A stretch of DNA of 64,000 nucleotides from Ostreococcus lucimarinus (lineage: Eukaryota), in assembly GCA_000092065.1 (NCBI GenBank), contig CP000594.1; one strand, given 5' to 3'. Under the pieces are notes generated by a model. The model did no database searches. It had not been told where the DNA came from and saw only the letters and a list, made by a program, of their open reading frames with translations. Within the stretch, counting starts at the first letter, position 1. The number at the start of each line of letters is the position of its first letter. The translations under genes and the position numbers were made by a program. This document shows positions 1,667-49,177 of this stretch, piece by piece.

Positions 1667-3095
1667 CTTAACTATGATATTGTATGGTGTACCATCGGAC
1701 ATCGCGCGCAATATATTGGACATAACTTTTCATACTTAAAGGGGAGCCGCGTGATACACGAGGGACCATCTCACCACGAAGAAATGGGCACCTCTGGTAC
1801 CGAAAAACGTGGCACCCTCGTTCACGCGCGACCACTCTTGAGCCATGAACGGGAGCGACCCATCAAAGGAGACACGCGCACACCGATTCTCGACCACCCG
1901 TCTTCGCCGTGTGCTTTGCAGTACCCCGATCTCGTCGAAAAAGTAGCAAAATGTTGACCAGTGGGGCGTGCTGGCGTGCTTTTCCAGGCTGTTGAAAAAC
2001 TTGAAAATCAGTCATCGCGCCGATGTGACCAGGAAAAACACGGCTTAAAGAATTCTTTTCTTATGTGATATATATGGACGCCAGAGAATTTACGAACGGC
2101 ATGCATCTGATCCCACTCGACCAGGACAAGGAACCAACATGCGGCAGGGGGTTCCTCGATGAAGCAAACTATGAACAGAACACGCAGAAAGTCATCCCAG
2201 GAGAAATGTACGGCGTGCTGACAGGGCGACCGAACCGTGTCCTCGTCGTCGACTGGGATTGTTACGGTGGCAAGTGCGAGTTTGAACTCACGGAAGAAAT
2301 GTTGACGCGCAAGGTTGGCGGGGAAGGCGCGTACATCGTCAAAACGCGATCAGGCGGGTACCACACGTACTTCGCATGGGACGAAGAACGAGTCGGCGAT
2401 TGGAAAGGCACAGTAGGCATCGAAGGGTTCGTCGATATCCGTACGACGGGTAACTACGTGGTCGGTGCCCATGCCCCGGGCTACGAGCTACTCCGAGGAG
2501 ACATCAACAATTTACCACCAATGCCCAACGATTTGTACAGTTTCTTTGATGGCAAAGTCGGTCACAAGGTCGAACGCGCCGACACGGAGTGCAGCTTTAC
2601 GCAAGCATCTGTGACACCTTTGCTCGAGGACATGGGGTTCACCGGCATACATTGGCTCAGTGGAGCGACATCGTATGATTTTGAATGCGACCAATGTCGC
2701 CCACAGCGAGGCACCTCTGTGGGCCAATGTCCTTGCTGTGGGGGCTTCCACGAAGGCAATGGAAAGGGCGGCGGGAACCACTTTTACGTCGCCGAGGTCG
2801 GCCTCGGCGTGCTCACCGTGAAAAACCATGGCAACTGCAAGCCCAGGCAGTTTCGCTTTGAGGTTGGGTGTCTGGTGACCGGTATCACCGAAAAGGAGCA
2901 GAACGAAATCAAAGAGGGCACGTCTGCGGGCTACATCGAGGTCCGCCGTGAGTTCGAGAAGCACGTCGCAAAGATCTTGACCAAGGACCTCTTCTGCGAC
3001 GATAGCTGTTATGGAACCACCGGGGAGATCGCCAAATTCAGCGAGGCCGCTTTGGTGAGGCGCTATCGAGAACTCTCCTTTGTCGATGAGAACGG
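1667..3095 (+). mobile_element. Fragment A-left of the Prim-Pol/S3H + GIY-YIG element family. It carries the 5' terminus, the leader and the first ~343 codons of the primase-helicase, in + orientation.
   Basis: About 95% nucleotide identity to 18552..17364 and 47116..45682. Homology starts at the shared terminus 'CTTAACTATGA' and stops abruptly after 'gatgagaacgg' at 3095. Confidence 0.7.
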
Positions 3096-3345
3096 CGCGT
3101 CCGATGAGCGTCTTGCTCACGGTGCAACCGTCCTGTTGGACCTTGAACTGAATTTTGGCGAAAGAGAGAAAGTCCTCGGGATCATTTGTCTTTTCAAAGA
3201 GCGCATTCAGACGGTCGCAGAGGTCGTCGTTCTCCGCCCATTCGGCGATGCTCTTCCTCACTGCATCGGGCGCGACGGGCTTCGTCGCCTCGTACGCCTT
3301 GAGGAGCAGCGAACGCGAAACGAACCGGTGATATATATATATTAA
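2065..3345 (+). pseudogene. Truncated primase-helicase. The Prim-Pol domain is intact through 'ELSFVDENG', after which the frame runs into unrelated sequence.
   Basis: The first ~343 aa are near-identical to the 736-aa ORFs at 16183..18393 and 44501..46711. The remainder, 'ASDERLAHGATVLLD...', has no counterpart in the full copies. Confidence 0.75.
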
Positions 3346-4132: not shown

Positions 4133-4357
4133 CGAATTAGTGTTGAGCGAACCCCTTCCGGCTGCTGTTTCGATCCCGTCGACCACGATTAACGACGCGC
4201 GTGTTTCACTCGTGCGTCCGACGCGCTTTTTCCCGACGCGGTTCCCGACTGCACTGACGTGCGTCGTCAAGTGCCTCGTCGTCGAGGGTGCTCGAGTTTT
4301 ACTTTTACTGTTGACGCGCCACGTCGGATTCCGACAGGCCCAGGCGCGGCCGCAATG

Positions 4358-4489
4358 CTACTTTAAACTTAGTATATTTTTTTTGAAAAAAGAGTAGTAA
4401 GAGTAATAAAAACAAACTTTTTGCTACTTTAAACTTAGTATATTTTTTTTGAAAAAAGAGTAGTAAGAGTAATAAAAACAAACTTTTTT
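4358..4489. repeat. 2 x 66-bp tandem duplication in the element 3' terminus ('ctactttaaacttagtatattttttttgaaaaaagagtagtaagagtaataaaaacaaactttt')
   Basis: Direct reading shows two adjacent copies. Copy C (43413..43480) has a single unit. Confidence 0.8.
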
Positions 4490-4583
4490 TTGAGTTGCGG
4501 CACCCCAACATGATAAAACCGCACATCGACGTCGATGTACCACATGTAAGATTTCTCCAGAACCAATCGTGTGAGTGAAGTGG

Positions 4584-5081
4584 TCAAACCAAGCCACGCA
4601 ACTCGTCTACCGTAAATTGATACTTGTCGAGACTGCGCTTCGAAGGCAGCGTGCCGCGCGCTCGAGCATTCTTGAGGCACGTCTTACGCAGTATTCTTTT
4701 CGCGTGCTGCTTGTAATAATTGAGTTGTCTGTAGTTACCATCGCCGCCGTCCCGCTTCGGCGTATATTTAGCTCTGCCAAGGGTTCGACTCTCGTCCACG
4801 TTCTCGTGGCACGTGTGTTTCTGGCTGAGTCCAGCAGCTCGGGAGTTGAATAAGCCGTCACGCTTCTCTCTCATGTAGGCACTTTTACGTTGATGGAGCT
4901 CTCCAGCTGGAATGTCCTTTTCGAGAACTCTCACGTTCGCGTCGCCAAACTTGAAGATTGGATGCCGTGCGTATTTATGCGAGGCAAGGCGCGCTCTGAG
5001 CGAACCTGTCGTCGATCCGATGTACGTTTTGTTACATTTTGCATTATCGCTAAACATTTCGTACACGCATCCCGACGGCAT
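4584..5081 (-). CDS. GIY-YIG family nuclease (homing-endonuclease-like), 165 aa
   Basis: Canonical motifs are present: 'CVYEM' (GIY), 'YIGST' (YIG), 'RARLASH' (Arg/His), the catalytic Glu in 'EKDIPAGE' and Asn in 'LFNSR'. It is near-identical to 15262..15759. Confidence 0.8.
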   Translation of the reverse strand: MPSGCVYEMFSDNAKCNKTYIGSTTGSLRARLASHKYARHPIFKFGDANVRVLEKDIPAGELHQRKSAYMREKRDGLFNSRAAGLSQKHTCHENVDESRTLGRAKYTPKRDGGDGNYRQLNYYKQHAKRILRKTCLKNARARGTLPSKRSLDKYQFTVDELRGLV

Positions 5082-5514
5082 TTGTCCTGGTCACCTATCT
5101 ATCCCTAAGAAAATATAGTTGCCAAAAGTGCTCCTCTTGCGGTTTGCAGTCACATTCGAGAGATCATAGGTGCTCGTGTTGCTGCGTGGGGTGCAAGGTC
5201 TGGGATGTAGATATCGAACCGCCTGATTTCACACCTGGACGTTCGTGATCCGACGAGACCTGACGAAATGACGAACTTGTTTTGTCGTCCCCAAATTCGT
5301 CAGCCCGTCGTTCGGTCACACTTTGTGTGTACCAATGATGAAAATGACGAAATGTTAAAATATTTCAATGTTTATTTTTATTTTAGATCTATGAAAAGCA
5401 ACAGTGTAGACCTTTATGAAAACAGTTCGTCATTCGTCATTTCGTCAGGATCCAAACCATGGTCTTTTTGGTGTCTTGTTGAGTCTTCATATTGCAAATG
5501 TACGAATCACAAAA

Positions 5515-5655
5515 TTAGTATGAACACCAGACGACCGCCGGCGCGAGCTCCGTCTCCCCCGTTTACCCATTGTCCTTCAGCCACTCGAAGCACCCGTCGC
5601 GGTCAATTTCCCAATAGACGCCATTCTCGTCCCTAGCTTGCCTCAGGTGGTCCTC
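5515..5655 (-). pseudogene. C-terminal remnant of the primase-helicase (last 46 codons plus stop)
   Basis: Matches 16183..16320 and 44501..44640. It is cut off at the junction with the upstream-module repeat. Confidence 0.7.
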
Positions 5656-5889
5656 TTAATACACCAAAAAGTAAATGCAATTATGGTGTTTCATTATTCC
5701 ATACGAGTACCCCAGAACGACGAGTCGTGACCCATACGGTAAAAATATCACGTCCCGCCGGTCCGGTCCCCATAGTATATAGAATTTATACAATTCAGCC
5801 CGCGTCATTACGGGGGTACAGTAATCTATGTGTCCGACATTAAACTCGATTTTTGCTAGGGTTTAGCGTCCCCGGTGTCCCGCGCGCGC
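5656..5889 (+). promoter_or_regulatory. Conserved upstream module (copy 1). It ends with 'AAACTCGATTTTTGCTAGGGTTTAGCG' about 30 bp before the first ATG.
   Basis: It shares 'catacgagtac..gacgagtcgtgac..tacggtaaaaatatcacgtcccgccggtccggtcccc..atagtatat' and the 27-bp terminal box with 19750..20125 and 36130..36585. It contains a 'gtacagtaatc' half-palindrome. Confidence 0.55.
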
Positions 5890-14399: not shown

Positions 14400-14883
14400 T
14401 ATAGCGGTCGTCTACGAGGAATACACGCATAGTCTAAACATGACCATCCTGTTGGAGAAGGAGCTGAGTTTCCGCTTCGTTACGGATGAGATTGTCGCGA
14501 GGAGATGAGCCTTCAAATTCGGGGCGATGGCTCACAAATCAGGCAAGGGAAGACAGGTGCACGTGCAAACTCTCAGCGGAAAGAGTTCATCGTCTCGAAG
14601 ATCTCGGTGTTTGGTGAGACAAACTCGACACACAGCAGGAGCACTTCACTGCCTGAGTGTACAGAAGATGTAACTAGCCTGAAGCGTTCGACCGTTGAGA
14701 CCTCAAGTTTTGGTGCCCTCGCTTAAGATTTCTTCAGAATAGAATCTCTGAAAGCAAGGGATGCTCAAAGCAGCAAAAATGACTTCCTACTACGGGCCAC
14801 ACAGGACGCCGAGCCCGATTTCTCTGTGCGTTCCGACCCCCCTTAACAGCGGACCCTTGGGTCTTAAGAAATTTCAACCTTTA

Positions 14884-14912
14884 AGGTTATAGGTTATATA
14901 GGTTATAGGTTT
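14884..14912. repeat. Short (aggttat)n-like microsatellite
   Basis: 'aggttataggttatataggttataggttt' read directly. Confidence 0.5.
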
Positions 14913-15261
14913 ATTTATAAAGTTTACATGTGACGTTTTTTTTCAAAAATGGAAAAAAAAGTGACGGAGAGAAAGTTCCTCACAGGACCTCCAACCACTA
15001 AACCCATAACCGGTCACTCTTCCTCGCCCCGTTCTTTGATACACGTTCGCCCCACGACGGTTCGACCTGAAATTTTTTTCGGTTTGGCTTCGAACCCGAG
15101 CTTGGTCAGCGCGCGTCCGATGAGCATCTTGCTCACGGTGCAGCCGTTAAAAATATCAACTTTTTTGTTTCAGTTGGGGCACCCCAACATGATAAAACGC
15201 TCATCGACGTTGATGTACCGCATGTACGATTTCTTCAGAACCAATCGTTCGAGTGAAGTGG

Positions 15262-15759
15262 TCAAACCAAGCCACGCAACTCATCTACCGTAAATTGATA
15301 CTTGTCGAGACTGCGCTTCGAAGGCAGCGTGCCGCGCGCTCGAGCATTCTTGAGACACGTCTTACGCAGTATTCTTTTCGCGTGCTGCTTGTAATAATTG
15401 AGTTGTCTGTAGTTACCATCGCCGCCGTCCCGCTTCGGCGTATATTGAGCTCTGCTGTAGGCCAGACTCTCGTCCACGTTCTCGTGGCACGCGTGTTTCC
15501 GACTGCGTCCAGGAACTCGGGAGTTGAATACGCCGTCGCGCTTCTCTCTCATGTATGCACTTTTACGTTGACGGAGCTCTCCAGCTGGAATGTCCTTTTC
15601 GAGAACTCTCACGTCCGCGTCGCCAAACGTGAAGATTGGATGCCGTGCGTATTTATGCGAGGCAAGGCGCGCTCTGAGCGAACCTGTCGTCGATCCGATG
15701 TACGTTTTGTCACATTTCGCATTATCGCTAAACATTTCGTACACGCATCCCGACGGCAT
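15262..15759 (-). CDS. GIY-YIG family nuclease, 165 aa
   Basis: Same motifs as 4584..5081. Confidence 0.8.
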   Translation of the reverse strand: MPSGCVYEMFSDNAKCDKTYIGSTTGSLRARLASHKYARHPIFTFGDADVRVLEKDIPAGELRQRKSAYMREKRDGVFNSRVPGRSRKHACHENVDESLAYSRAQYTPKRDGGDGNYRQLNYYKQHAKRILRKTCLKNARARGTLPSKRSLDKYQFTVDELRGLV

Positions 15760-15926
15760 TTGTCCTGGTTACCTGTCTATCCCTAAGAAAATATTGTTGT
15801 CAAAAGTCCTCCTGCTGCGGTTTGCAGTCGCATTCGAGAGACCGTATCGCTGCGTGGGCTGCAAGGTCTGGGATGTAGATATCGAACCGCCCGATTTCAC
15901 ACCTGGACGTTCGTGATCCGTCGAGA

Positions 15927-16117
15927 CCTGACGAAATGACGAACTTGTTTTGTCGTCCCGAAATTCGTCAGCCCGTCGTTCGGTCACACTTTGTGTGTAC
16001 CAATGATGAAAATGACGAAATGTTAAAATATTTTAATGTTTATTTTTATTTTAGATCTACGACAAGCAACAGTGTAGACCTTTATGAAAACAGTTCGTCA
16101 TTCGTCATTTCGTCAGG
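15927..16117. promoter_or_regulatory. Intra-element inverted repeat ('cctgacgaaatgacgaac' and 'gttcgtcattcgtcatttcgtcagg') around an AT-rich spacer, between the primase-helicase and GIY-YIG genes
   Basis: The arms are reverse complements at 15927..15944 and 16093..16117, with one extra heptamer in the right arm. The spacer contains 'atgatgaaaatgacgaaatgttaaaatattttaatgtttatttttattttag'. It is conserved in all three copies (5268–5460 and 44254–44440). Confidence 0.6.
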
Positions 16118-16182
16118 ATCCAAACCATGGTCTTTTCGGTGTCTTGTTGAGTCTTCATATTGCAAATGTACGAATCACAAAA

Positions 16183-18393
16183 TTAGTATGAACACCAGAC
16201 GACCGCCGGCGCGAGCTCCGTCTCCCCCGTGTACCCATTGTTCTTCAGCCACTCGAAGCACCCGTCGCGGTCAATTTCCCAATAGACGCCATTCTCGTCC
16301 CTACCTTGCCTCAGGTGGTCCTCGCGCATTGGGATCCTGTGGCCCTTTTCCTTCTTGAAGAAGTCCTTGAGCTTATTGCCGACCCTGGTCGCGCTATCTT
16401 GACCGCGCGTAGCCGCTGGCAACCACGTCTGGTATTCGATGAAGATGTCACTGTTGCGGATTTTATTTCCAACCCACTTCTCAGGGAATTCAACAGTGAC
16501 GCAATGCTCAAACCATCGAGTGAACTTGGGCATGCAGCCACGCTTCATTTCCGAATACGCGTCGGTCGTAGGTCTGTCTTTCACGTAGTCAAAAGTCGAT
16601 AGGTCGAGCCCCATGAGGTGGTCGTAGATCGCCCTCAAGTTCCTCAGATCCTTGATGTACACGTCGCGGAATTCCTTCAAGAATCCAGTCTGGTCGTTCA
16701 AGTGCGTGAGCAGTGGCTCCATAACGACGAACCGACGATCACTCATTTCCAGAAAAACGGGGTAGTCGTCGTTCGAGAAAAATAGGAACCCAACCAGATT
16801 CATGATGACGTACAGCTGCACGTGCTTCGGGTTGATTGTGAAACTCGTGTCCGTGAGCATCGATTTCAGCAACTTTCTATACATTTTCATGATGCACTCA
16901 TCTGCTTCGTTCAACGCGAGACACTTTTTGCCTTCAATCATGTTCGCATGCGTCCCAAATATGTCCTTTTTCGGATCAGCCGTCTCATGAAACGTCTTGC
17001 CCATGAGCGCATGAAGCAGGTGCAGGAAAGTGCCCTTGCCGGTACCTTGGACTCCTCGAAACACGAGCGACGTGATCGGCTTCTCTTCGGGTCTCTGGAA
17101 GAGACACGCGAACCAATTCAAAGCGTACTCGAGCGCATTTTCTGAACCGCCACATAGCACCAGGAGGAGCTCGAGGAAAGGCTTTACGTCGCCCTCTTTG
17201 CCCAGTTCACTGGGGATGCCTTCGACCGGATAGCCTCGCCACAGATTGTACGTCTTGTTGCTGCAGTTTTTCGGGACGACATCGAGGGTATCGTACACCC
17301 GTTTATTGTCGTCGTCGAGCCACTTTTCGATGAACCCGTTCTTCTTGCCTTTCCTCAAGACACCGTTCTCATCGACAAAGGAGAGTTCTCGATAGCGCCT
17401 CACCAAAGCGGCCTCGCTGAACTTGGTAATGTCCCCGGTGGTTCCATAACAGCTATCGTCGCAGAAGAGGTCCTTGGTTAAGATCTTTGCGACGTGCTTC
17501 TCGAACTCACGGCGGACCTCGATGTAGCCCGCAGACGTGCCCTCTTTGATTTCGTTCTGCTCCTTTTCGGTGATACCGGTCACCAAACACCCAACCTCAA
17601 AGCGAAACTGTCTGGGCTTGCAGTTGCCATGGTTTTTCACGGTGAGCACGCCGAGACCGACCTCGGCGACGTAAAAGTGATTCCCACCGCCCCTTCCATT
17701 GCCTTCGTGGAAGCCCCCACAGCAAGGACATTGGCCCACAGTGGTGCCTCGCTGTGGGCGACATTGGTCGCATTCAAAATCATACGATGTCGCTCCACTG
17801 AGCCAATGTATGCCCGTGAACCCCATTTCCTCGAGCAAAGGTGTCACAGATGCTTGCGTAAAGCTGCACTCCGTGTCCGCGCGTTCGACCTTGTGACCGA
17901 CTTTGCCATCAAGGAAACTGTACAAATCGTTGGGCATCGGTGGTAAATTGTTGATGTCGCCTCGGAGTAGCTCGTAGCCCGGGGCATCGGCACCGACCAC
18001 GTAGTTACCCGTCGTACGGATATCGACGAACCCTTCGATGCCCACCGTGCCTTTCCAATCGCCGAATCGTTCTTCGTCCCATGCGAAGTACGTGTGGTAC
18101 CCGCCTGATCGCGTTTTGACGATGTACGCGCCTTCCCCGCCAACCTTGCGCGTCAACATTTCTTCCGTCAGTTCAAACTCGCACTTGCCACCGTAACAAT
18201 CCCAGTCGATGACGAGGACACGGTTCGGTCGCCCTGTCAGCACGCCGTACATTTCTCCTGGGATGACTTTCTGCGTATTCTGTTCATAGTTTGCTTCATC
18301 GAGGAACCCTCTGCCGCATGTTGGCTCCTTGTTCTGGTCGAGTGGGATCAGATGCATGCCGTTCGTAAATTCTCTGGCGTCCATATATATCAC
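16183..18393 (-). CDS. Primase-polymerase (AEP/Prim-Pol) fused to a D5-like SF3 helicase, 736 aa
   Basis: AEP motifs are present: 'VLVIDWDCY' (DxD), 'SGGYHTYF' (motif II His) and 'VDIRTTGNYVVGADAPGY' (motif III). A Cys4 Zn-ribbon 'CDQC...CPCCGGFHEG' follows. Walker A is 'GVQGTGKGTFLHLL', Walker B is 'KKCLALNEADE', and SF3 motif C is 'FFSND'. Confidence 0.85.
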   Translation of the reverse strand: MIYMDAREFTNGMHLIPLDQNKEPTCGRGFLDEANYEQNTQKVIPGEMYGVLTGRPNRVLVIDWDCYGGKCEFELTEEMLTRKVGGEGAYIVKTRSGGYHTYFAWDEERFGDWKGTVGIEGFVDIRTTGNYVVGADAPGYELLRGDINNLPPMPNDLYSFLDGKVGHKVERADTECSFTQASVTPLLEEMGFTGIHWLSGATSYDFECDQCRPQRGTTVGQCPCCGGFHEGNGRGGGNHFYVAEVGLGVLTVKNHGNCKPRQFRFEVGCLVTGITEKEQNEIKEGTSAGYIEVRREFEKHVAKILTKDLFCDDSCYGTTGDITKFSEAALVRRYRELSFVDENGVLRKGKKNGFIEKWLDDDNKRVYDTLDVVPKNCSNKTYNLWRGYPVEGIPSELGKEGDVKPFLELLLVLCGGSENALEYALNWFACLFQRPEEKPITSLVFRGVQGTGKGTFLHLLHALMGKTFHETADPKKDIFGTHANMIEGKKCLALNEADECIMKMYRKLLKSMLTDTSFTINPKHVQLYVIMNLVGFLFFSNDDYPVFLEMSDRRFVVMEPLLTHLNDQTGFLKEFRDVYIKDLRNLRAIYDHLMGLDLSTFDYVKDRPTTDAYSEMKRGCMPKFTRWFEHCVTVEFPEKWVGNKIRNSDIFIEYQTWLPAATRGQDSATRVGNKLKDFFKKEKGHRIPMREDHLRQGRDENGVYWEIDRDGCFEWLKNNGYTGETELAPAVVWCSY

Positions 18394-18695
18394 ATAAGAA
18401 AAGAATTCTTTAAGCCGTGTTTTTCCTGGTCACATCGGCGCGATGACTGATTTTCAAGTTTTTCAACAGCCTGGAAAAGCACGCCAGCGCGCCCCACTGG
18501 TCAACGTTTTGCCACTTTTTCGACGAGATCGGGGTACTGCAAAGCACACGGCGAAGACCCGAGAGATCAGCAGATCGACGAACTCCGCAGTGAGCTCAGT
18601 GACATCGTGTCAAGACTGGAGGCGGTGGAGAGCGCCTAATCATCGTTTTTCTATATCGCGCCATTCGTGGACAACAAAATATACGTCCACATATA

Positions 18696-19693
18696 TTAAC
18701 TCCCCGTGCTTGCCTCGTCCAAATTGGCATCGCCCATGCGCCGTCGAAGCGAAGACGTGTCATCTCCCGAACCACTGAGCGCCTTTAGCGCGCCCTCTAC
18801 GCCACGAAGCGCGCTGTAAAGAAGGTCTTGGGCGCCAACTTTGTTGTACCAATCTTGGAAGCTTTTGCACGCACAAAATTGCTTCTCAGGTCCCCATTCA
18901 GGCTGCCACTTTGGTACGTTACACTGACCATAACCATCATAGTTAACGTATCCATCAACGCTGAGGTTACTGCCATCGCAGCCAATGACACCCACAGGAT
19001 GAACAATGAAGCTACTTGAGCCACTTCGGTGGCCAACATACTGGGGTGGACATGACCCATAATTCCCACGATAATTCCACAGTGTGAGCCTCTGTTGTTC
19101 CATTTTCGCCTCGTAGCTGCGCAACGCATCGCTCAACTCCTCGAGGTTGCGTTCCAAAGATACACTAGTCCTTTTTCTTTTGTGTTGCTGGAGTTGTTCA
19201 GAGGCGTGTTCTTTTATGTCGGCAATTTTATCGGGCAAGCCTTTCAAATCTGCGATAACCGCATCCACATCGGCGCACATCGCGTTCAATGAATTGTCTT
19301 TCTCTTTTAATTTCGCACGAGTGTCCTCGATGTGCTGCGGGATAACCGACCGTCGCGTTTCGGAGATATTCTCGTCTTGTAGCTGCGCTTCCAGAACTCG
19401 GATATCTTTATCGATGCGCTCTACGGTGCGAAGATAACTCGCCCGTAAGAGGCGCTTGAACTCCTCGAGGCCGTCGGGCGTCGGTTTGTCATACTCGTCT
19501 CGTGATCTGGCGAATTTCTCGTAGCATGGGTCCTTGAAGAATGGCTTGTTCTTGTACGAGCGCTCGAGATCATCCTCCGCTGTTTTGACCGCCTCTGACT
19601 CCGCCGTGCCGTTCATCCAGTCCGGTTGCAGCGACGGGTCTAATGAGTTCGTTCTCCATGTCGGTGAGGCGTGCGCGACTGAATCGGTCATCG
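18696..19693 (-). CDS. Hypothetical protein with a coiled-coil N-terminal half and a Cys-containing C-terminal half
   Basis: ORF 18696..19769 starts inside the conserved upstream box via TTG. The first ATG, 'MTDSVAHASP', is at 19693, about 60 bp downstream of the 27-bp box, the same spacing as gene 36586. Confidence 0.4.
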
Positions 19694-19719
19694 CGTGCGT
19701 CGATGAGTGGCGCCGACAC

Positions 19720-19749
<30 letters not shown>

Positions 19750-19751
<2 letters not shown>

Positions 19752-19753
19752 GC

Positions 19754-19786
<33 letters not shown>

Positions 19787-20125
19787 TTGTCGATTTTTAA
19801 CACGTTTACAGTGGAACCTCTGCGGTTTTTGACGCCTAAACCCTAATTTCTAAACCCTAATGTGTAAATACGAGTACGACGTTTCATTAACCCATACGAG
19901 TACCCCCGAACGACGAGTCGTGACTCATACGGTAAAAATATCACGTCCCGCCGGTCCGGTCCCCATATACTATGGAATTTATGCTATTCAGCCCGCGCAA
20001 ACAGTCGGGTAGATTACTGTACAGTAATCTACCCGTATCTTACTGTACAGTAATCTGTGCGCGGAATCAGTAATCTGTACCCGGAATGACGCGGGATGTG
20101 GCGTAATCTATACCCGACATCCCGT
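19750..20125 (-). promoter_or_regulatory. Conserved upstream module (copy 2), with telo-box-like AAACCCTAA x3, a perfect 18-bp palindrome GATTACTGTACAGTAATC and the 27-bp terminal box
   Basis: Read directly. The palindrome is at 20012..20029 with a second 14-bp palindrome at 20040..20053. 'ctaaaccctaatttctaaaccctaa' is at 19846..19868. Confidence 0.55.
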
Positions 20126-20437
20126 GTTCTGTACACTGTGGGGCTTCAGGCCGCCGAGTATGATTAAGCCTATTTTGCATCACAATTGTCGGTCTACTCT
20201 TAACATTTGGCGGACTCGCGTTACATGCTATTCTGATCGAGTGGAATTTTCCATAGTTATTGTCCGTATGTTGAACGGCCCTCTCTTAAGATTGGGTGCG
20301 CATCTGAAGCGAGGCTTCCAGGATCTGAACAGTCGTGTACAGGTGGTTCGGTTAACGGCGTCTTCTGTACCCTCAGGTGGCGAACTTCATCTCCAAGATA
20401 TCAGGTTTTTGTGCCAAAACACACTCACTTCTTCGAC

Positions 20438-36129: not shown

Positions 36130-36585
36130 CGCGTGTAAAGGCAGACACTTTATATAGCACTTTGGGAGGTTAAAAGGTGTCCCAAAGTCTCATACATTGG
36201 CCTATACTTTGGCAACATCCCGCGCTTTGATTACAGTACAGTAATATAACCCCCGCCAATGCGCGGGATGAATGGCATACATTCCATAGTATATGGGGAC
36301 CGGACCGGCGGGACGTGTGATTTTTACCGTATGGGTCACGACTCGTCATTCGGAGTACTCGTATGGAATAATGAAACACCATAACTGCATTTACTTTTTG
36401 GTTCATTAAAAAAACCGTACGGGCATTTACTGCAGAATTGGCCACTTTTCGCGCGGGTTTCACTGGACACGTGTCAAAAACGTGGCTTTTCTGAAACTCG
36501 ATTTTTGCTAGGGTTTAGCGTCTCAGTGTCCCGACGGAGATACAGTGCGGGGATCCCGTCGGCAGCACTCTCCGTCGCGCACGCA
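36130..36585. promoter_or_regulatory. Bidirectional intergenic region between the two giant genes. It carries module copy 3, TATA-like 'ctatataaag', a hairpin 'ctttggg..ggttaaaa..cccaaag', a palindrome 'ttacagtacagtaa', and the 27-bp box 60 bp before ATG 36586.
   Basis: Read directly. The module sequence is conserved with 5656..5889 and 19750..20125. Confidence 0.55.
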
Positions 36586-42996: not shown

Positions 42997-43265
42997 ACAA
43001 ATCATTTCAAACCATCCTATTATTGGCATTGTGGTAAGTACAATCGACCTCACGGAAAAGGCAGGCGGTACTGGCGTCGAAGAGTCGCGTGAGATTTCGC
43101 TTAAGATTTCGGCACCCTCGCTTAAGATCTCTTCAGAATCGAATCTCTGAACGCAAGGCGTGGATGTACATTAAACCATGAACGAGGCGGGACACGGTTC
43201 GATTTTTGGATTACAAGTGTAGGTCTACTTTTACGTTTCGTGGACTCCGCTCGAGTCGGCCGATG

Positions 43266-44075
43266 TCACCATGTCAGGTGTTTCGAGTGCACTAGAGACG
43301 TGACCGCCGATACACAGGACGTCGAGCTCGGCGTGCCTGATTTCACGACTCGGCGACCATGGTTTGAAACCGAAATGACCATCGGCTTCAGGCCCAGGCG
43401 CGGCCGCAATGCTACTTTAAACTTAATTTTTTTTTTTTGAAAAAAGAGTAGTAAGAGTAATAAAAATAAACTTTTTTTTTGTTTGAGTTGGGGCCCCCCC
43501 AACATGATAAAACCGCACATCGACGTTGATGTACCACATGTAAGATTTCTCCGGGAACCAATCGTGTGAGTGAAGTGGTCAAACCAAGCCACGCAACTCA
43601 TCGACCGTAAATTGATACTTGTCGAGACTGCGCTTCGAAGGCAGCGTGCCGCGCGCTCGAGCATTCTTGAGGCACGTCTTACGCAGTATCTTTTCGCGTG
43701 CTGCTTGTAATAATTGAGTTGTCTGTAGTTACCATCGCCGCCGTCCCGCTTCGGCGTATATTGAGCTCTGCTGTAGGCCGGACTCTCGTCCACGTTCTCG
43801 TGGCACGCCTGCTTCTGGCTGCGTCCAGTAGCTCGGGAGTTGAATAAGCCGTCACGCTTCTCTCTCATGTAGGCACTTTTACGTTGATGGAGCTCTCCAG
43901 CTGGAATGTCCTTTTCGAGAACTCTCACGTCCGCGTCGCCAAACGTGAAGATTGGATGCCGTGCGTATTTATGCGAGGCAAGGCGCGCTCTGATCGAACC
44001 TGTCGTCGATCCGATGTACGTTTTGTCACATTTCGCATTATCGCTATACATTTCGTACACGCATCCCGACGGCAT
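43266..44075 (-). CDS. GIY-YIG nuclease, copy C. The catalytic core is intact, but the C-terminal third is frameshifted by a 1-bp deletion, making it a possible pseudogene.
   Basis: The first ~120 aa match copies A and B. 'cgcagtatcttttcgcg' lacks one T relative to 'cgcagtattcttttcgcg' in A and B, so the frame runs on to 269 aa. Confidence 0.6.
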   Translation of the reverse strand: MPSGCVYEMYSDNAKCDKTYIGSTTGSIRARLASHKYARHPIFTFGDADVRVLEKDIPAGELHQRKSAYMREKRDGLFNSRATGRSQKQACHENVDESPAYSRAQYTPKRDGGDGNYRQLNYYKQHAKRYCVRRASRMLERAARCLRSAVSTSINLRSMSCVAWFDHFTHTIGSRRNLTCGTSTSMCGFIMLGGPQLKQKKSLFLLLLLLFFQKKKIKFKVALRPRLGLKPMVISVSNHGRRVVKSGTPSSTSCVSAVTSLVHSKHLTW

Positions 44076-47000
44076 TTGTCCTGGTTACCTATCTATCCCT
44101 AAGAAAATATTGTTGCCTCCTCCTGCGGTTTGCAGTCACATTCGAGAGACCATAGGTACTCGTGTCGCTGCGTGGGGTGCAAGGTCCGGGATGTAGATAT
44201 CGAACCGCCCGATTTCACACCTGGACGTTCGTGATCCGTCGAGACCTGACGAAATGACGAACTTGTTTTGTCGTCCCGAAATTCGTCAGCCCGTCGTTCG
44301 GTCACACTTTGTGTGTACCAATGATGAAAATGACGAAATGTTAAAATATTTTAATGTTTATTTTTATTTTAGATCTATGACAAGCAACAGTGTAGACCTT
44401 TATGAAAACAGTTCGTCATTCGTCATTTCGTCAGGATCCAAACCATGGTCTTTTTGGTGTCTTGTTGAGTCTTCATATTGCAAATGTACGAATTACAAAA
44501 TTAGTATGAGCACCAGACGACCGCCGGCGCGAGCTCCGTCTCCCCCGTGTACCCATTGTTCTTCAGCCACTCGAAGCACCCGTCGCGGTCAATTTCCCAA
44601 TAAACGCCCTTCTCGTCCCTACCTTGCCTCAGGTGGTCCTCTTGCATTGGGACCCTGTGGCCCTTTTCCTTCTTGAAGAAGTCCTTGAGCTTATTACCGA
44701 CCTTCGTCGCGCTATCTTGACCGCGCGCAGCCGCTGGCAACCACGTCTGGTATTCGATGAAGATGTCACTGTTGCGGATTTTATTTCCAACCCACTTCTC
44801 AGGGAATTCAACAGTGACGCAATGCTCAAACCATCGAGTGAACTTGGGCATGCATCCACGCTTCATTTCCGAATACGCATCGGTCGTAGGTCTGTCTTTG
44901 ACGTAGTCAAAGGTCGATAGGTCGAGCCCCATGAGATGGTCGTAGATTGCCCTCAAGTTCCTCGGATCCCTGATGTAAACCTCGCGGAATTCCTTCAAGA
45001 ATCCAGTCTGGTCGTTCAAGTGCGTGAGCAGTGGCTCCATGACGACGAACCGACGATCACTCATTTCCAGAAAGACCGGGTAGTCGTCGTTCGAGAAAAA
45101 TAGGAACCCAACCAGATTCATGATGACGTACAGCTGCACGTGCTTCGGGTTGATTGTGAAACTCGTGTCCGTGAGCATCGACTTCAGCAACTTTCTATAC
45201 ATTTTCATGATGCACTCATCTGCTTCGTTCAACGCGAGGCACTTTTTGCCTTCAATCATGTTCGCATGCGTCCCAAATATGTCCTTTTTCGGATCAGCCG
45301 TCTCGTGAAACGTCTTGCCCATGAGCGCGTGAAGCAGGTGCAGGAAAGTGCCCTTGCCGGTACCTTGGACTCCTCGAAACACGAGCGACGTGATCGGCTT
45401 CTCTTCGGGTCTCTGGAAGAGACACGCGAACCAATTCGAAGCGTACTCGAGCGCATTTTCTGAACCGCCACATAGCACCAGGAGGAGCTCGAGGAAAGGC
45501 TTCACGTCGCCCTCTTTGCCCAGTTCACTGGGGATGCCTTCGACCGGGTAGCCTCGCCACAGATTGTACGTCTTGTTGCTGCAGTTTTTCGGGACGACGT
45601 CGAGGTTATCGTACACCCGTTTATTGTCGTCGTCGAGCCACTTTTCGATGAACCCGTTTTTCTTGCCTTTCCTCAAGACACCGTTCTCATCGACAAAGGA
45701 GAGCTCTCGATAGCGCCTCACCAAAGCGGCCTCGCTGTACTTGGTAATGTCCCCGGTGGTTCCATAACAGCTATCGTCGCAGAAGAGGTCCTTGGTTAAG
45801 ATCTTTGCGACGTGCTTCTCGAACTCACGGCGGACCTCGATGTAGCCCGCAGACGTGCCCTCTTTGATTTCGTTCTGCTCCTTTTCGGTGATACCGGTCA
45901 CCAAACACCCAACCTCAAAGCGAAACTGTCTGGGCTTGCAGTTGCCATGGTTTTTCACGGTGAGCACGCCGAGACCGACCTCGGCGACGTAAAAGTGATT
46001 CCCACCGCCCCTTCCATTGCCTTCGTGGAAGCCCCCACAGCAAGGACATTGGCCCACAGTGGTGCCTCGCTGTGGGCGACATTGGTCGCATTCAAAATCA
46101 TACGATGTCGCTCCACTGAGCCAATGTATGCCCGTGAACCCCATTTCCTCGAGCAAAGGTGTCACAGATGCTTGCGTAAAGCTGCACTCCGTGTCCGCGC
46201 GTTCGACCTTGTGACCGACTTTGCCATCAAGGAAACTGTACAAATCGTTGGGCATCGGTGGTAAATTGTTGATGTCGCCTCGGAGTAGCTCGTAGCCCGG
46301 GGCATCGGCACCGACCACGTAGTTACCCGTCGTACGGATATCGACGAACCCTTCGATGCCCACCGTGCCTTTCCAATCGCCGAATCGTTCTTCGTCCCAT
46401 GCGAAGTACGTGTGGTACCCGCCTGATCGCGTTTTGACGATATACGCGCCTTCCCCGCCGACCTTGCGCGTCAACATTTCTTCCGTGAGTTCAAACTCGC
46501 ACTTGCCACCGTAACAATCCCAGTCGATGACGAGGACACGGTTCGGTCGCCCTGTCAGCACGCCGTACATTTCTCCTGGGATGACTTTCTGCGTATTCCG
46601 TTCATAGTTTGCTTCATCGAGGAACCCCCTGCCGCATGTTGGCTCCTTGTCCTGGTCGAGTGGGATCAGATGCATGCCGTTCGTAAATTCTCTGGCGTCC
46701 ATATATATCACATAAGAAAAGAATTCTTTAAGCCGTGTTTTTCCTGGTCACATCGGCGCGATGACTGATTTTCAAGTTTTTCAACAGCCTGGAAAAGCAC
46801 GCCAGCACGCCCCACTGGTCAACATTTTGCCACTTTTTCGACGAGATCGGGGTACTGCAAAGCACACGGCGAAGACGGGTGGCCGATGATCCATGTGTCC
46901 GTGTCTTCTCTGATGATTCGCTCCCGTTCATGGCTCAAGTGGTCGCGCGACCTCGCGCGTGAACGAAGGTGCCAAATTTTAGGTACCAGAGGTGCCCATT

Positions 47001-47116
47001 TCTTCGTGGTGAGATGGTCCCTCGTGTACCACGCCGCTCCCCTTTAAGTATGAAAAGTTATGTCCAATATATTGCGCGCGATGTCCGATGGTACACCATA
47101 CAATTTCATAGTTAAG
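43389..47116 (-). mobile_element. Copy C, the longest copy of the Prim-Pol/S3H + GIY-YIG element (about 3.73 kb), in minus orientation
   Basis: Termini are 'caggcccaggcgcggccgcaatgctactttaaactta...' (3' end, shared with copy A-right) and '...tcatagTTAAG' (5' end, shared with copy A-left). Internal order is 5' leader (~405 bp), primase-helicase, inverted-repeat spacer (~420 bp), GIY-YIG, 3' region (~320 bp). Confidence 0.75.
44501..46711 (-). CDS. Primase-polymerase/SF3 helicase, copy C (736 aa, intact)
   Basis: About 98% amino-acid identity to 16183..18393, with the same motifs. Confidence 0.85.
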   Translation of the reverse strand: MIYMDAREFTNGMHLIPLDQDKEPTCGRGFLDEANYERNTQKVIPGEMYGVLTGRPNRVLVIDWDCYGGKCEFELTEEMLTRKVGGEGAYIVKTRSGGYHTYFAWDEERFGDWKGTVGIEGFVDIRTTGNYVVGADAPGYELLRGDINNLPPMPNDLYSFLDGKVGHKVERADTECSFTQASVTPLLEEMGFTGIHWLSGATSYDFECDQCRPQRGTTVGQCPCCGGFHEGNGRGGGNHFYVAEVGLGVLTVKNHGNCKPRQFRFEVGCLVTGITEKEQNEIKEGTSAGYIEVRREFEKHVAKILTKDLFCDDSCYGTTGDITKYSEAALVRRYRELSFVDENGVLRKGKKNGFIEKWLDDDNKRVYDNLDVVPKNCSNKTYNLWRGYPVEGIPSELGKEGDVKPFLELLLVLCGGSENALEYASNWFACLFQRPEEKPITSLVFRGVQGTGKGTFLHLLHALMGKTFHETADPKKDIFGTHANMIEGKKCLALNEADECIMKMYRKLLKSMLTDTSFTINPKHVQLYVIMNLVGFLFFSNDDYPVFLEMSDRRFVVMEPLLTHLNDQTGFLKEFREVYIRDPRNLRAIYDHLMGLDLSTFDYVKDRPTTDAYSEMKRGCMPKFTRWFEHCVTVEFPEKWVGNKIRNSDIFIEYQTWLPAAARGQDSATKVGNKLKDFFKKEKGHRVPMQEDHLRQGRDEKGVYWEIDRDGCFEWLKNNGYTGETELAPAVVWCSY

Positions 47117-47181
47117 CCACACTTATTATATGACGACAGTGCCTACCTGTCGGTGGTCACGGAAAAGTTGCGTCTCAGACT

Positions 47182-47329
47182 GAGGATGGCGTGGCTCATG
47201 CGAGCTATATATACCTCATATATACATATATTAACACTTATAACACTATTAATGTACAATTGATTGGATGAGGTGCTCAGTCCACCCGCGCGAGGTCAAC
47301 AGCAGCAATTGTCTATGCACTTGGAGCAT
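47182..47329. repeat. Direct repeat DR-1 (~150 bp). It contains TA-rich 'gctatatatacctcatatatacatatattaacac' and the 3' coding end of the metallothionein-like gene.
   Basis: About 88% identical to 48858..49006. Confidence 0.8.
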
Positions 47330-47595
47330 GAGTTTTTGCACTCGCACGACGGACACGCGCAGGAGGTGCATCCGCACGACTTACACGTGGTCGCATCGGG
47401 ACACGCGCATTTGTCGGGGCCACAAGCATCACAGTCTTTCGGGCAGCACGCCTTGTCCGTGGACTCAGATTGTACCGTCCGTGCTGCAACCCGCGTCGGG
47501 CGCGAGACGACGCGCACGGCGCGTGGCGCGGTTCTTGACAATACGAAATCTGGTATCTGCGTACTCTTTACCTTAACGGCGGAGACTTTGAGCAT
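47296..47595 (-). CDS. Metallothionein-like Cys-rich protein
   Basis: ORF 47296..47643. The last ~52 aa are about 40% Cys: 'ACCPKDCDACGPDKCACPDATTCKSCGCTSCACPSCECKNSCSKCIDNCCC'. The Met at 47595 ('MLKVSAV') was taken as the start. The N-terminal ~45 aa are non-Cys, so the true start or exon structure is uncertain. Confidence 0.4.
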   Translation of the reverse strand: MLKVSAVKVKSTQIPDFVLSRTAPRAVRVVSRPTRVAARTVQSESTDKACCPKDCDACGPDKCACPDATTCKSCGCTSCACPSCECKNSCSKCIDNCCC

Positions 47596-47810
47596 TGTTG
47601 CGTCGAGGAATGGGCCAAGGGTAAGTAACCTCGTGGTCGGCACGTGCCCGCCTTATACAATCGACGCCTGAAAAGGGAGACTGGATGAGATCGAGGGCAC
47701 CCCGTGAGCGATCACTCTTCGACGCGGAACTCGTTCCTGTAGACGGCCAGCCACCACTCGAACGACCATACGGCAGCACAAAAGTACATCCACAACGTGT
47801 ACGTATCGAA

Positions 47811-48542
47811 ATGGCTGCCTATACTCAAGCGACGTTAACAGCACCTTCGTCGTCGACAGCCGTAAGCAATTCGAAGATAAGACTACGCCGTTCACGAACA
47901 ACTACGCGCACACATTCTGATCCGTCCGAAAGTACGCCGTTGAGTGAAGAGGCGCAAATCATAGTTGATGCATCGGAGGCGTACCCAGCGCAGACAAGCG
48001 TGGATTATTCGTTCGCAAGGAGTGGGTTCAGTAACCAGTGTGAACGAGCACTCAACGAGCAAATCAATGTCGAGTACAATATTTCGTACGTCTATCACGC
48101 CATGTGGGCGTACTTCAATCGTGACAATATCGCATTGGCTGGCTTTGCTGAACACTTTCGAAAAGAGTCACTGGAGGAGCGTGCGCATGCGGAACAACTC
48201 ATGGAGTACATGAACTTACGAGGCGGCAAAGTTGAGCTCCAACAATTGTTACCACCACAGAGTGAATACGATCGCCCGGAGAAAGGATGCGCACTATTAG
48301 CCCTGGAGCTGAGTTTGAGTCTCGAAAAGTTGAATAAAGAGAAACTGTGTGAACTGCATCGCGTCGCTGAGGATGCAGGAGACGCACATATGTGCGATTT
48401 TATTGAAGGCGAGTTATTAGACTCGCAGGTTCAAAGTGTGCGACAGGTTAGCGAGATGGTCGCCACGCTATTACGCATGGGACCGCCAGCAGATGGTATG
48501 GCAACTTGGCACTTCGATCAAACCTTACTTGAGGTGGCATAG
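47811..48542 (+). CDS. Ferritin with an N-terminal transit-peptide-like extension
   Basis: Classic ferritin signature: 'CERALNEQINVEYNISYVYHAMWAYFNRDNIALAGFAEHFRKESLEERAHAEQLMEYMNLRGG'. The ORF is open from 47685, the first ATG is at 47811 ('MAAYTQATLTAPSSS...'), and the Ser/Thr/Arg-rich leader is consistent with organellar targeting. Confidence 0.8.
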   Translation: MAAYTQATLTAPSSSTAVSNSKIRLRRSRTTTRTHSDPSESTPLSEEAQIIVDASEAYPAQTSVDYSFARSGFSNQCERALNEQINVEYNISYVYHAMWAYFNRDNIALAGFAEHFRKESLEERAHAEQLMEYMNLRGGKVELQQLLPPQSEYDRPEKGCALLALELSLSLEKLNKEKLCELHRVAEDAGDAHMCDFIEGELLDSQVQSVRQVSEMVATLLRMGPPADGMATWHFDQTLLEVA

Positions 48543-48862: not shown

Positions 48863-49006
48863 CGCTTTGAGGATGGCGTGGCTCATGCGACCTATATATG
48901 CCTCATGCGTACATATATTAACATTTATAAGGGTATTAATACATAATTGATTGGATGGGGTGCTCAGTCCACCCGCGCGAGGTCAACAGCAGCAATTGTC
49001 TTTGCA
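48858..49006. repeat. Direct repeat DR-2, partner of 47182..47329
   Basis: Aligned by eye. The minus strand here again ends an ORF with '...CKDNCCC*'. Confidence 0.8.
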
Positions 49007-49177
49007 CTGATCAGTCCGTGTTTGACAAGGAGACGTTCGCGCGAAAGTGAGTGGAGTGAGATAAGCAAAATTGGGATTTTTTGTTATTTAAAATGACTTC
49101 TTTTATATCGACGATCTTGTCTCGATTATACGCTGACCTTCGCGGGTGCTTGTTGTACTTGTACGTACACGACCCAG

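Follow-up and report, generated by a model that had tools for sequence, protein, structure and literature searches.

A primase-helicase/GIY-YIG repeat in a lineage-specific island

We analysed a 64,000-nt stretch of the Ostreococcus lucimarinus CCE9901 genome (GenBank GCA_000092065.1, contig CP000594.1; hereafter the window), in which a unit encoding a 736-aa primase-helicase and a 165-aa GIY-YIG protein occurs in three copies, A, B and C. An earlier interpretation of the letters alone, the sequence-only reading, had proposed this repeat and its gene content, and self-blastn of the window confirmed that the copies are 94-97% identical. B and C align over most of their length (15161-18558 with 43475-46876; 97.2%, 3411 nt), while the two parts of A match separate regions of C: A-left in inverted orientation (1667-3095 with 47116-45681; 95.9%, 1437 nt) and A-right at the other side (4422-5657 with 43410-44643; 94.9%, 1243 nt). 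The proposed fixed order of leader, primase-helicase open reading frame (ORF; intact in B and C), inverted-repeat spacer and GIY-YIG gene (intact in A and B) was upheld, as was the frameshift of the GIY-YIG gene in copy C. The whole of copy C runs from a 5' end region and leader through the primase-helicase, the spacer, the frameshifted GIY-YIG gene and a tail to the remnant of a small ORF and a 3' motif (Table 1). As the earlier reading stated for the element, no reverse transcriptase, DDE transposase, tyrosine recombinase or capsid domain was found in or beside the window copies.

All three copies lie in a lineage-specific island of lower GC content at the left of the window (positions 1-51200), in which the GC content of third codon positions (GC3) is about 0.53, versus 0.65-0.70 in the adjoining host genes. 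No synteny with other Ostreococcus species was found for these ~51 kb. The host genes that follow from ~51.2 kb rightwards, encoding ABC-F, HECT, eIF4G-like and MRP-S28 proteins, are syntenic with other Ostreococcus (L026, L027 and L041; L numbers denote loci from other assemblies).

The history of the copies differs from the earlier description in several respects. Copy A had been regarded as split and inverted, but it is a composite of two partial copies and an antisense fragment of a B-type tail, the first 36 nt of which equal window positions 15112-15147; the junction of A-left recurs in L066, L076 and L079. Copy B is indeed truncated on its 5' side, but its 3' side, also taken for truncated, is an alternative tail of ~390 nt that is common to many copies elsewhere. 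Finally, the copies do not sit at unrelated loci throughout, since on the 3' side B and C both have remnants of the same small ORF, a 34-nt motif common to the two, and a giant gene in convergent orientation.

Table 1 Features of the repeat unit and its derivatives in the window (window coordinates).
Feature	Position	Strand	Remarks
Copy C, full-length compact element, ~4.2 kb	43093..47292	-	Matched by L060; L025 and L073 also pass the previously claimed ends
5' end region and leader, copy C	46712..47292	-	Outer boundary CGCGCGGGTGGACTGAGCACC at 47292; TATA-like GGTATATATAG inside
Primase-helicase ORF, copy C	44501..46711	-	736 aa from GTG; 733 aa from ATG at 46702
Origin-like spacer, copy C	44076..44500	-	Seven TGACGAA iterons, AT-rich core, perfect 17-nt inverted repeat
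GIY-YIG pseudogene, copy C	43576..44075	-	1-nt deletion at nt 387
A/C-type 3' tail after the A-run	43389..43477	-	Duplicated in tandem in copy A; same type of tail in L025
Frameshifted remnant of the 65-72-aa membrane/Cys-rich ORF	43175..43365	+	phmmer E=3.5e-15; disrupted in L060 too
3' end motif TTCAGAGATTCGATTCTGAAGAGATCTTAAGCGAG (34 nt)	43117..43151	-	Within the window only downstream of B and C
Copy B	14694..18558	-	5'-truncated, lacking ~730 nt of end region and leader; both genes intact; B-type tail
Primase-helicase ORF, copy B	16183..18393	-	Intact; versus C dN/dS 0.13, dS 0.06
GIY-YIG gene, copy B	15262..15759	-	Intact, 165 aa; XP_001421474 / UniRef A4S7L6; Lys66 at the catalytic-Glu position
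B-type 3' tail, ~390 nt	14767..15161	-	Common to L002-L010; followed by a decayed small-ORF trace
3' motif downstream of copy B	14718-14752		After the B-type tail and small-ORF trace
Copy A-left	1667..3095	+	Leader from CTTAAC and first ~343 primase-helicase codons; both ends are breakpoints
Antisense B-type tail fragment fused to the A-left breakpoint	3096..3302	.	97.6% identical to L025 16216-16422
Copy A-right	4335..5657	-	Last ~47 primase-helicase codons, spacer, intact GIY-YIG gene (4584-5081), duplicated A/C-type tail
Solo 5' end region	48868..49008	-	90% identical to 47181-47321
Further small-ORF remnant	20153..20234	+	79% identical to L036 1011-1090

The primase-helicase retains its catalytic motifs and is under purifying selection

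In the 736-aa window protein, Pfam hmmscan detected DUF5906 above the cut-off (E=2.2e-14), and residues 402-688 matched the PHROG 'DNA primase' family phrog_1156 (E=2.1e-30). The Prim-Pol family PF09250 was below detection in the window protein itself in hmmscan; eight homologs (P0002-P0010, 32-84% identical) have a precomputed PF09250 match, several of them marked weak, and homologs also carry PF19263 (DUF5906). An alignment of 10 family members (34-84% identity) showed that the motifs of archaeo-eukaryotic primases (AEP; D63/D65, S96-G97-G98-H100 and D124/R126) and those of superfamily 3 (SF3) helicases (Walker A G450/G452/K453, Walker B E496, motif C N541 and R553R554) are invariant. Equally invariant are C208, C222, C225 and H229, plus H255 and C258, a Cys/His cluster between the two domains that is a putative zinc-binding linker. 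Taken together, the alignment, Pfam and PHROG bear out the predicted fusion of an AEP Prim-Pol, a Cys/His cluster and a D5-type SF3 helicase, with the catalytic residues all present. The pairwise dN/dS ratios among copies were 0.04-0.19, indicating strong purifying selection; since this range includes comparisons between the window's own copies, the primase-helicase has evidently been kept functional. An origin from prasinoviruses or other nucleocytoplasmic large DNA viruses (NCLDV) was considered and rejected, as no named viral protein occurs among the homologs.

The spacer carries iterons that co-vary with the primase-helicase

In copy C, the arms of the perfect inverted repeat (44245-44261 and 44419-44435) lie 157 nt apart. 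Every copy has seven TGACGAA iterons, three in forward orientation, followed by the AT-rich core and then by reversed ones that form the 17-nt inverted repeat, and the whole window contains 46 TGACGAA sites versus 16.5 expected by chance. This window-type spacer was compared with those of relatives at increasing distance. A sister lineage (L001 and L035-L040, independent contigs from reef, Tara and other projects), whose primase-helicase is 81% identical at the amino acid level, has the same layout with seven TGATGAA iterons, changed in both arms. The spacer of L015, a relative at 35% identity, has eight ACTTGCC repeats in an inverted repeat, and that of L013 has a 48-nt (24/48-nt) inverted repeat right after the primase-helicase. 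The iteron architecture is thus kept while the repeat sequence co-varies with the primase-helicase lineage. Because the iterons track the neighbouring initiator, the cluster looks like a cognate origin of the adjoining SF3 protein, albeit a putative one, and it lends some support to the replicative part of the earlier proposal that the unit is self-replicating. A promoter reading of the cluster is unlikely: in the sister lineage it sits between two convergent gene ends.

The replication origins of SF3 viruses of the SV40/papillomavirus type consist of short repeats in inverted arrangement that flank an AT-rich tract. By analogy, seven iterons in inverted groups around an AT-rich core, beside an SF3 initiator gene, would be a comparable arrangement, although the spacing of the inverted-repeat arms in the window is longer than in the viral core origins.

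A gene for a bZIP-domain protein lies beside element debris in several reef and metagenome loci (L001 2992-3426, L002 2367-3062 and L017 665-1360), and the iterons TGACGAA and TGATGAA contain the bZIP-like half-site TGACG. This adjacency may be a coincidence, or the protein may be an element-encoded regulator.

The GIY-YIG protein has lysine in place of the catalytic glutamate

On its own, the 165-aa window protein matched PF01541 below the threshold (E=0.0067), and its UniRef entry is named 'GIY-YIG domain-containing'. A full HMMER scan of 1.8 billion representatives yielded a family of 33 clusters; PF01541 was matched by 17 of the 22 family members aligned (best E=5.7e-11), and the family profile matched the catalytic domain of I-TevI (1MK0/1LN0; E=3e-5). 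In addition, an AlphaFold2 (AF2) model with a predicted local distance difference test score (pLDDT) of 90 gave 66 BFVD matches at E<=1e-3, all of them GIY-YIG proteins, the best from giant viruses (7.6e-8) and one from the mavirus virophage (7.2e-6). Foldseek against the PDB likewise returned GIY-YIG domains as top matches, without significance. The predicted GIY-YIG fold is therefore established by the family profile, the I-TevI profile match and the modelled structure.

The complete catalytic set of GIY-YIG nucleases comprises two Tyr residues, Arg, His, Glu and Asn (Y6, Y17, R27, E75 and N90 in I-TevI). Y7, Y20, R31, H35 and N79 are present in the window protein, but the column equivalent to I-TevI Glu75 is occupied by Lys66, in 8/8 copies examined; the relatives P0301 and L013 keep Glu at this position. 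The gene is under weak constraint (dN/dS 0.25-0.62), and an invariant residue, Arg85, has been lost in several copies. In metagenomes from the reef and elsewhere, a 572-nt GIY-YIG cassette also occurs by itself, at a stable locus. Compared with the sister lineage, the GIY-YIG gene and the tail are inserted between spacer and small ORF, and a diverged duplication of ~50 nt borders the insertion. The Ostreococcus gene shows no evident intron, intein or homing site. Because of the Lys at the Glu75 column, the weak constraint and the solo cassettes, it is unlikely that the protein serves as the integrase or nickase of the element, the task assigned to it by the sequence-only reading.

The unit has a recurrent 5' boundary and miniature derivatives

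The ends of the unit had been placed at 47116 and 43389, which are merely the points at which copy A stops matching copy C. We compared the window with 40 copies from other assemblies, with 33 loci coming from a leader scan of JGI metagenomes. These termini are wrong, because in ~28/33 JGI loci the sequence upstream of CTTAAC (47116) continues in homology to the flank of C, and because L025 and L060 pass both points. Ends drawn from the three window copies alone were thus misleading and have been superseded by the external copies. The outer 5' boundary common to these copies corresponds to 47292, where three unrelated flanks abut. L060 is a full copy that aligns with the window from 47292 to 43093 over 4204 nt (96.4%) and is flanked by other sequence on either side. 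We also found leader-only fragments and, in L075 and L078/L079, miniatures of ~0.7 kb, in which the 5' region (to 46825) is joined to the 3' motif through ~160 nt of private sequence that contains an inverted repeat. The 3' motif is present in L002-L010, L025 and L060 as well as in the miniatures L075, L078 and L079. The idea of a discrete unit therefore survives in the recurrent 5' boundary and in the miniatures, though not with the ends first given.

Two other explanations of these ends were rejected. L075 and L078 are not clean empty sites, as the ~160 nt between leader and 3' motif is unrelated sequence, marking them as miniature derivatives. A retroposition-like origin was considered for the constant A-run at the 3' limit of the core and the variable 5' truncation; however, what lies beyond the A-run is still part of the unit and comes in two tail variants, the majority of copies reach the common 5' boundary, and the unit is without a reverse transcriptase.

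At one reef chromosome end (~850-870 kb), L002, L003, L005 and L007, from different reef samples, have the right flank and the element in common, whereas the left flank is of four kinds, joined at breakpoints within the leader. The element would thus seem to mark a hotspot at which chromosome ends are exchanged in natural populations, unless the junctions are assembly chimeras at the repeat.

Direct ~140-bp copies of the 5' end (47181-47321 and 48868-49008) bracket a 115-aa Cys-rich ORF (47296-47643, minus strand) and a ferritin gene (47685-48542), which raises the question of whether pairs of element ends capture or shuffle host genes. L025 has instead a 1.76-kb insertion between its Cys-rich region and the compact unit. 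Within the two 5' ends, a non-coding stretch of ~77 nt (47224-47299 and 48911-48986) is 80-84% identical to intergenic positions 1475-1550 of L013, unusually high conservation for non-coding DNA given the 33% identity of the primase-helicases.

A sister lineage carries the replication genes within a larger gene set

The gene order in the sister lineage is primase-helicase, spacer, a 65-72-aa membrane/Cys-rich ORF on the opposite strand, and genes for a 308-aa ATPase, a Pro-rich 139-aa protein, a 369-aa protein and a 436-aa protein. The small membrane/Cys-rich ORF directly follows the spacer there; in copy C it comes after the GIY-YIG gene and tail. The 308-aa P-loop protein has Walker A 'KQSGKT' and Walker B 'VIIDDA' motifs and is conserved in L013 (E=1.3e-7); its gene is absent from the window. 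The 369-aa and 436-aa genes sit where structural genes would be expected, and their products are putative capsid or other structural proteins. The window and the surroundings of all compact copies yielded no capsid gene. Homologs of the 436-aa protein, ~44% identical and annotated 'unnamed protein product' (P0282-P0296), occur on at least 10 chromosomes of Bathycoccus prasinos, which suggests a sizeable uncharacterised family of endogenous elements in that genus. The 21-kb contig L013, with the primase-helicase at 33% identity, also has the GIY-YIG gene (46%), the small ORF and the ATPase. Because the sister lineage and L013 share the replication genes within larger gene sets, the compact unit is, judging by its gene content, a reduced relative of a larger multi-gene element.

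The sequence-only reading had presented the unit as an isolated two-gene element not described before in eukaryotes, to be given up if neighbouring virion genes revealed it as a fragment of an integrated virus. The unit is not isolated, since in the sister lineage the same two parts, primase-helicase and spacer, precede the small membrane ORF, the ATPase and putative structural genes. In spirit, this is the outcome on which the earlier reading was to be given up, with the candidate virion genes, of putative capsid identity, accompanying the sister lineage and not the compact copies. As for novelty, endogenous polinton-like viruses (PLVs) bearing primase-helicases have already been reported, with Ostreococcus included at survey level: the primase-helicase is a common PLV replication gene, and endogenous PLV/virophage sequences with 1-2 capsid genes are known from Ostreococcus (Bellas et al. 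2023, PMC10120064).

These results bear on the model put forward by the sequence-only reading, an autonomous, two-gene, self-replicating, transposon-like element of a new class, copied by its Prim-Pol/helicase, with its GIY-YIG protein nicking the target and integrating it. The unit is indeed compact, discrete and multi-copy, with an initiator and an origin-like site, the pairing of primase-helicase and GIY-YIG is old, both being found in L013, and no integrase or capsid gene accompanies any compact copy. However, the proposed integration enzyme has Lys for Glu in all copies, evolves under weak constraint with loss of Arg85 in several copies, and occurs as a solo cassette at a stable locus; the claimed termini were wrong, no target-site duplication (TSD) was found, and the sister lineage has the same replication module in a larger element. 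We consider this model decidedly unlikely.

Near-identical copies occur across apparently diverged genomes

Copies on chromosome-scale reef contigs were 96-98% identical to the window copies, with a dS of 0.04-0.08 between O. lucimarinus and reef-contig primase-helicases. In contrast, host genes of O. lucimarinus and other Ostreococcus lineages had a DNA identity of 73-82% and a dS of 1.07-1.96, and the nearest non-self HECT clusters or orthologs were 62-67% identical. All reef Ostreococcus genomes have been assigned to clade B, RCC809-like (PMC13558084). Because the copies are near-identical against saturated divergence of host genes, the compact unit apparently moves between Ostreococcus species, with the species of the reef contigs as assigned in PMC13558084. 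Clustering at 90% identity gave cluster sizes of 601 for the primase-helicase and 898 for the GIY-YIG protein, compared with 46-73 for sister-lineage genes and 45-217 for single-copy host genes.

The surrounding island

The island contains giant intron-less ORFs of 5156, 2240 and 2163 aa of lectin or surface type, with Tectonin and F5/8 type C domains together in one and 13 DUF285 repeats in another. Such giant-gene/low-GC regions of Mamiellales have been linked to viral susceptibility (bioRxiv 10.1101/2025.04.21.649811). The island resembles outlier-chromosome sequence, yet the chromosome carries ordinary genes alongside. No tRNA or Rfam features that could serve as integration targets were found in the window. 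In-frame tandem repeats occur in the DUF285 gene (6727-10372; 75-nt period, including a 1-kb duplication at 98.7% identity) and in the 5156-aa ORF (24954-25773; 114-nt period, identity up to 99%). A ~150-bp repeat (86-92% identical) lies at 5656-5817, 19881-20029 and 36229-36409, upstream of giant-gene starts, and one copy directly adjoins position 5657, where A-right has its inner breakpoint. Members of the giant-gene family may share this repeat as a promoter or 5' untranslated region module.

Just outside the truncated 5' end of B, positions 18560-18634 include 58-75 nt that match L017 3166-3223 and L002 501-561 at 92-95%, where this stretch lies between a solo GIY-YIG cassette and a 364-aa ORF; in both settings it adjoins the stop codon of an orphan ORF of ~360 aa (18696-19769 in the window). 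At the island edge, an orphan 596-aa protein (XP_001421481; 49178-50968, minus strand) is 29% identical (E=1e-40) to a 682-aa ORF of L025 (17990-20038) that directly follows a diverged spacer and a small-ORF fragment. It may be another gene travelling with the element family.

Discussion

We interpret the repeat as a ~4.2-kb capsid-less replicon cassette derived from a polinton-like (virophage/PLV-type) family of virus-like elements of Mamiellales, a reading that we hold to be probable, if only just. The cassette would keep the initiator, its presumed cognate origin, a GIY-YIG protein without the catalytic Glu and a decayed small membrane ORF, and would have lost what comes next in the sister lineage, namely the ATPase and putative structural genes. 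It remains under selection and is apparently still mobile, by a mechanism needing outside help. With primase-helicase PLVs already known, it is not a categorically new class of mobile element.

The motifs and the co-variation of iterons and protein point to a possible mechanism, in which the primase-helicase would bind the iterons, open the AT-rich core, unwind and prime, so that the cassette is amplified. Having neither capsid nor integrase of its own, the cassette would spread between cells, and apparently between species as suggested by the near-identity of copies against host divergence, via a full-length relative or another virus. The copies are observed in low-GC islands specific to a lineage, as a rule next to a giant surface-protein gene at its 3' end, where the cassette would land and then decay; truncation, inversion, tail swapping and frameshifts are seen in copies A, B and C, with internal deletion giving rise to miniatures.

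A number of results weigh against this interpretation. The 3' boundary is approximate compared with the recurrent 5' one, and one of the three 5' flank types is common to full and miniature copies, so that it could belong to a still larger block. No terminal inverted repeats (TIRs) were found in copy C or L013-L015, no TSD and no inverted complementarity between the ends in C, L060 or L078, no integrase domain (rve or tyrosine recombinase) in the window or in neighbour ORFs of related loci, and no empty site. Only integrated copies of the compact unit were seen; L011 was rejected as a possible circular or episomal contig, its end and the leader showing no match. In the larger relatives, the only library match of the 308-aa ATPase is to a terminase large subunit, at a marginal E=0.0099, the 436-aa and 369-aa proteins have no match in Pfam, PDB or PHROG, and the AF2 model built from homologs as a capsid check was unusable, with a pLDDT of 35. 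Because the sister-lineage loci are without the end motifs of the compact unit, direct descent by internal deletion is at most conjectural. The family is absent from IMG/VR, where scans with the primase-helicase, a 380-aa protein and the family profile returned only remote Prim-Pol matches. The species of the reef contigs follows from the assignment in PMC13558084; the HECT clusters and loci retrieved to compare their host genes came from other projects. Finally, the GC3 of the primase-helicase, 0.69, is close to that of host core genes and unlike that of island genes, which also fits domestication.

Several of these points would equally be expected if the copies were passive debris, that is, broken endogenous PLVs that owe their number and their similarity to segmental duplication, ectopic recombination and gene conversion in hypervariable low-GC or subtelomeric islands, with no life of their own. 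The missing TIRs, TSDs and integrase agree with such an origin, as do the composite nature of copy A, the mosaic of element fragments that constitutes L025, the four left flanks joined to one right flank with breakpoints in the leader, the position of copies in the lineage-specific island or near contig ends, and the shared diverged 3' flanks of B and C, whose cores are nevertheless 97% identical. On the other hand, debris should not show an intact primase-helicase under strong purifying selection among the compact copies themselves, an outer 5' boundary that stays constant where three unrelated flanks meet it, a full copy in other surroundings (L060), or miniatures that retain both end regions. 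Moreover, the compact unit is commoner in sequence databases than its full-length relative, and its copies have remained nearly identical between genomes in which synonymous sites of host genes are saturated. We judge the debris explanation to be unlikely.

The host-like GC3 also agrees with domestication, in which Ostreococcus would have co-opted the primase-helicase and its binding sites, for instance for anti-viral or anti-PLV interference, and selection would have kept several copies. Strong purifying selection would follow, and the copies lie among giant lectin/surface-protein genes, in the type of region linked to viral susceptibility. The copies are, however, variably truncated, rearranged and pseudogenised, their positions vary between genomes, and miniature and solo-end derivatives are typical of selfish elements; a dS of 0.04-0.08 against host values above 1 does not fit vertical inheritance. 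Domestication is thus very unlikely.

A bolder version of the capsid-less cassette would make it a living 'hitch-hiker' replicon, transpoviron-like, running on its AEP-primase/SF3-helicase and on iterons of its own as the origin. Infection by a helper, either a full-length PLV relative or a prasinovirus, would lead to its amplification as an episome; it would be carried in helper particles between Ostreococcus species and reinserted preferentially beside giant surface-protein genes, leaving non-autonomous miniatures behind; it would thereby shape islands linked to virus resistance and possibly interfere with the helper. We regard this extension as improbable, on a par with the debris explanation.

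Comparison with known systems places the cassette, as we interpret it, near endogenous PLVs and virophage-like elements (PMC10120064; Yutin et al. 2015, PMC4642659). The likeness extends to the primase-helicase, a GIY-YIG protein of virophage/giant-virus type, the small P-loop ATPase of the sister lineage, and multi-copy integration in protist genomes with a GC content unlike that of host core DNA. PLVs measure 14-40 kb, however, whereas the window unit is ~4.2 kb without capsid, ATPase, protease or integrase genes; the window family also differs in that no TIRs were found, in its absence from IMG/VR and in the putative status of the sister-lineage capsids. Transpovirons, the ~7-kb capsid-less linear plasmid-like elements associated with mimiviruses (PMC3671162), are similarly small, built around a helicase and part of the virophage/polinton gene network, with a presumed dependence on a helper virus for spread, as proposed for the window unit. 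They have an SF1 helicase and long TIRs and are known from giant-virus particles; in the window unit the helicase is of the SF3 type and forms a fusion with an AEP primase, a search for TIRs found none, and only integrated copies were seen.

At the protein level, NCLDV D5, Sputnik V13/OLV25 (TVpol-S3H), the phage P4 alpha protein and ORF904 of the archaeal plasmid pRN1 similarly combine a primase, a Zn module (putative in the window protein) and an SF3 helicase with Walker A/B, motif C and an Arg finger in one polypeptide, and the window gene likewise adjoins the putative origin on which it would act. The window family is distinct in sequence, its best matches all being unannotated metagenome proteins, and Sputnik and OLV use TVpol where the window protein has an AEP domain. 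Virophage and giant-virus GIY-YIG proteins (mavirus MV06, OLV1/OLV24; PMC3671162) and the homing endonuclease I-TevI share with the Ostreococcus protein the fold, the GxxY and YIG motifs, the Arg, His and Asn residues, and the occurrence as free-standing cassettes. MV06 and OLV1 end in a C2H2-like Zn motif, as do distant members of the window family. The Ostreococcus protein differs in its Lys at the Glu75 position, its helical C-terminal half without a Zn motif, and its weak constraint.

No free-living eukaryote is smaller than Ostreococcus, which serves as a model for the coexistence of algae and viruses and whose hypervariable low-GC regions are tied to virus resistance. If our interpretation is correct, a selected, horizontally moving cassette beside giant surface-protein genes would be a concrete agent of island turnover, and its initiator and iterons would offer a tractable system for polinton-like replication and for the way in which capsid-less derivatives persist and travel. 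Even if the copies are debris only, they still document a Mamiellales-wide family of endogenous virus-like elements, multi-copy on Bathycoccus chromosomes and missing from viral catalogues.

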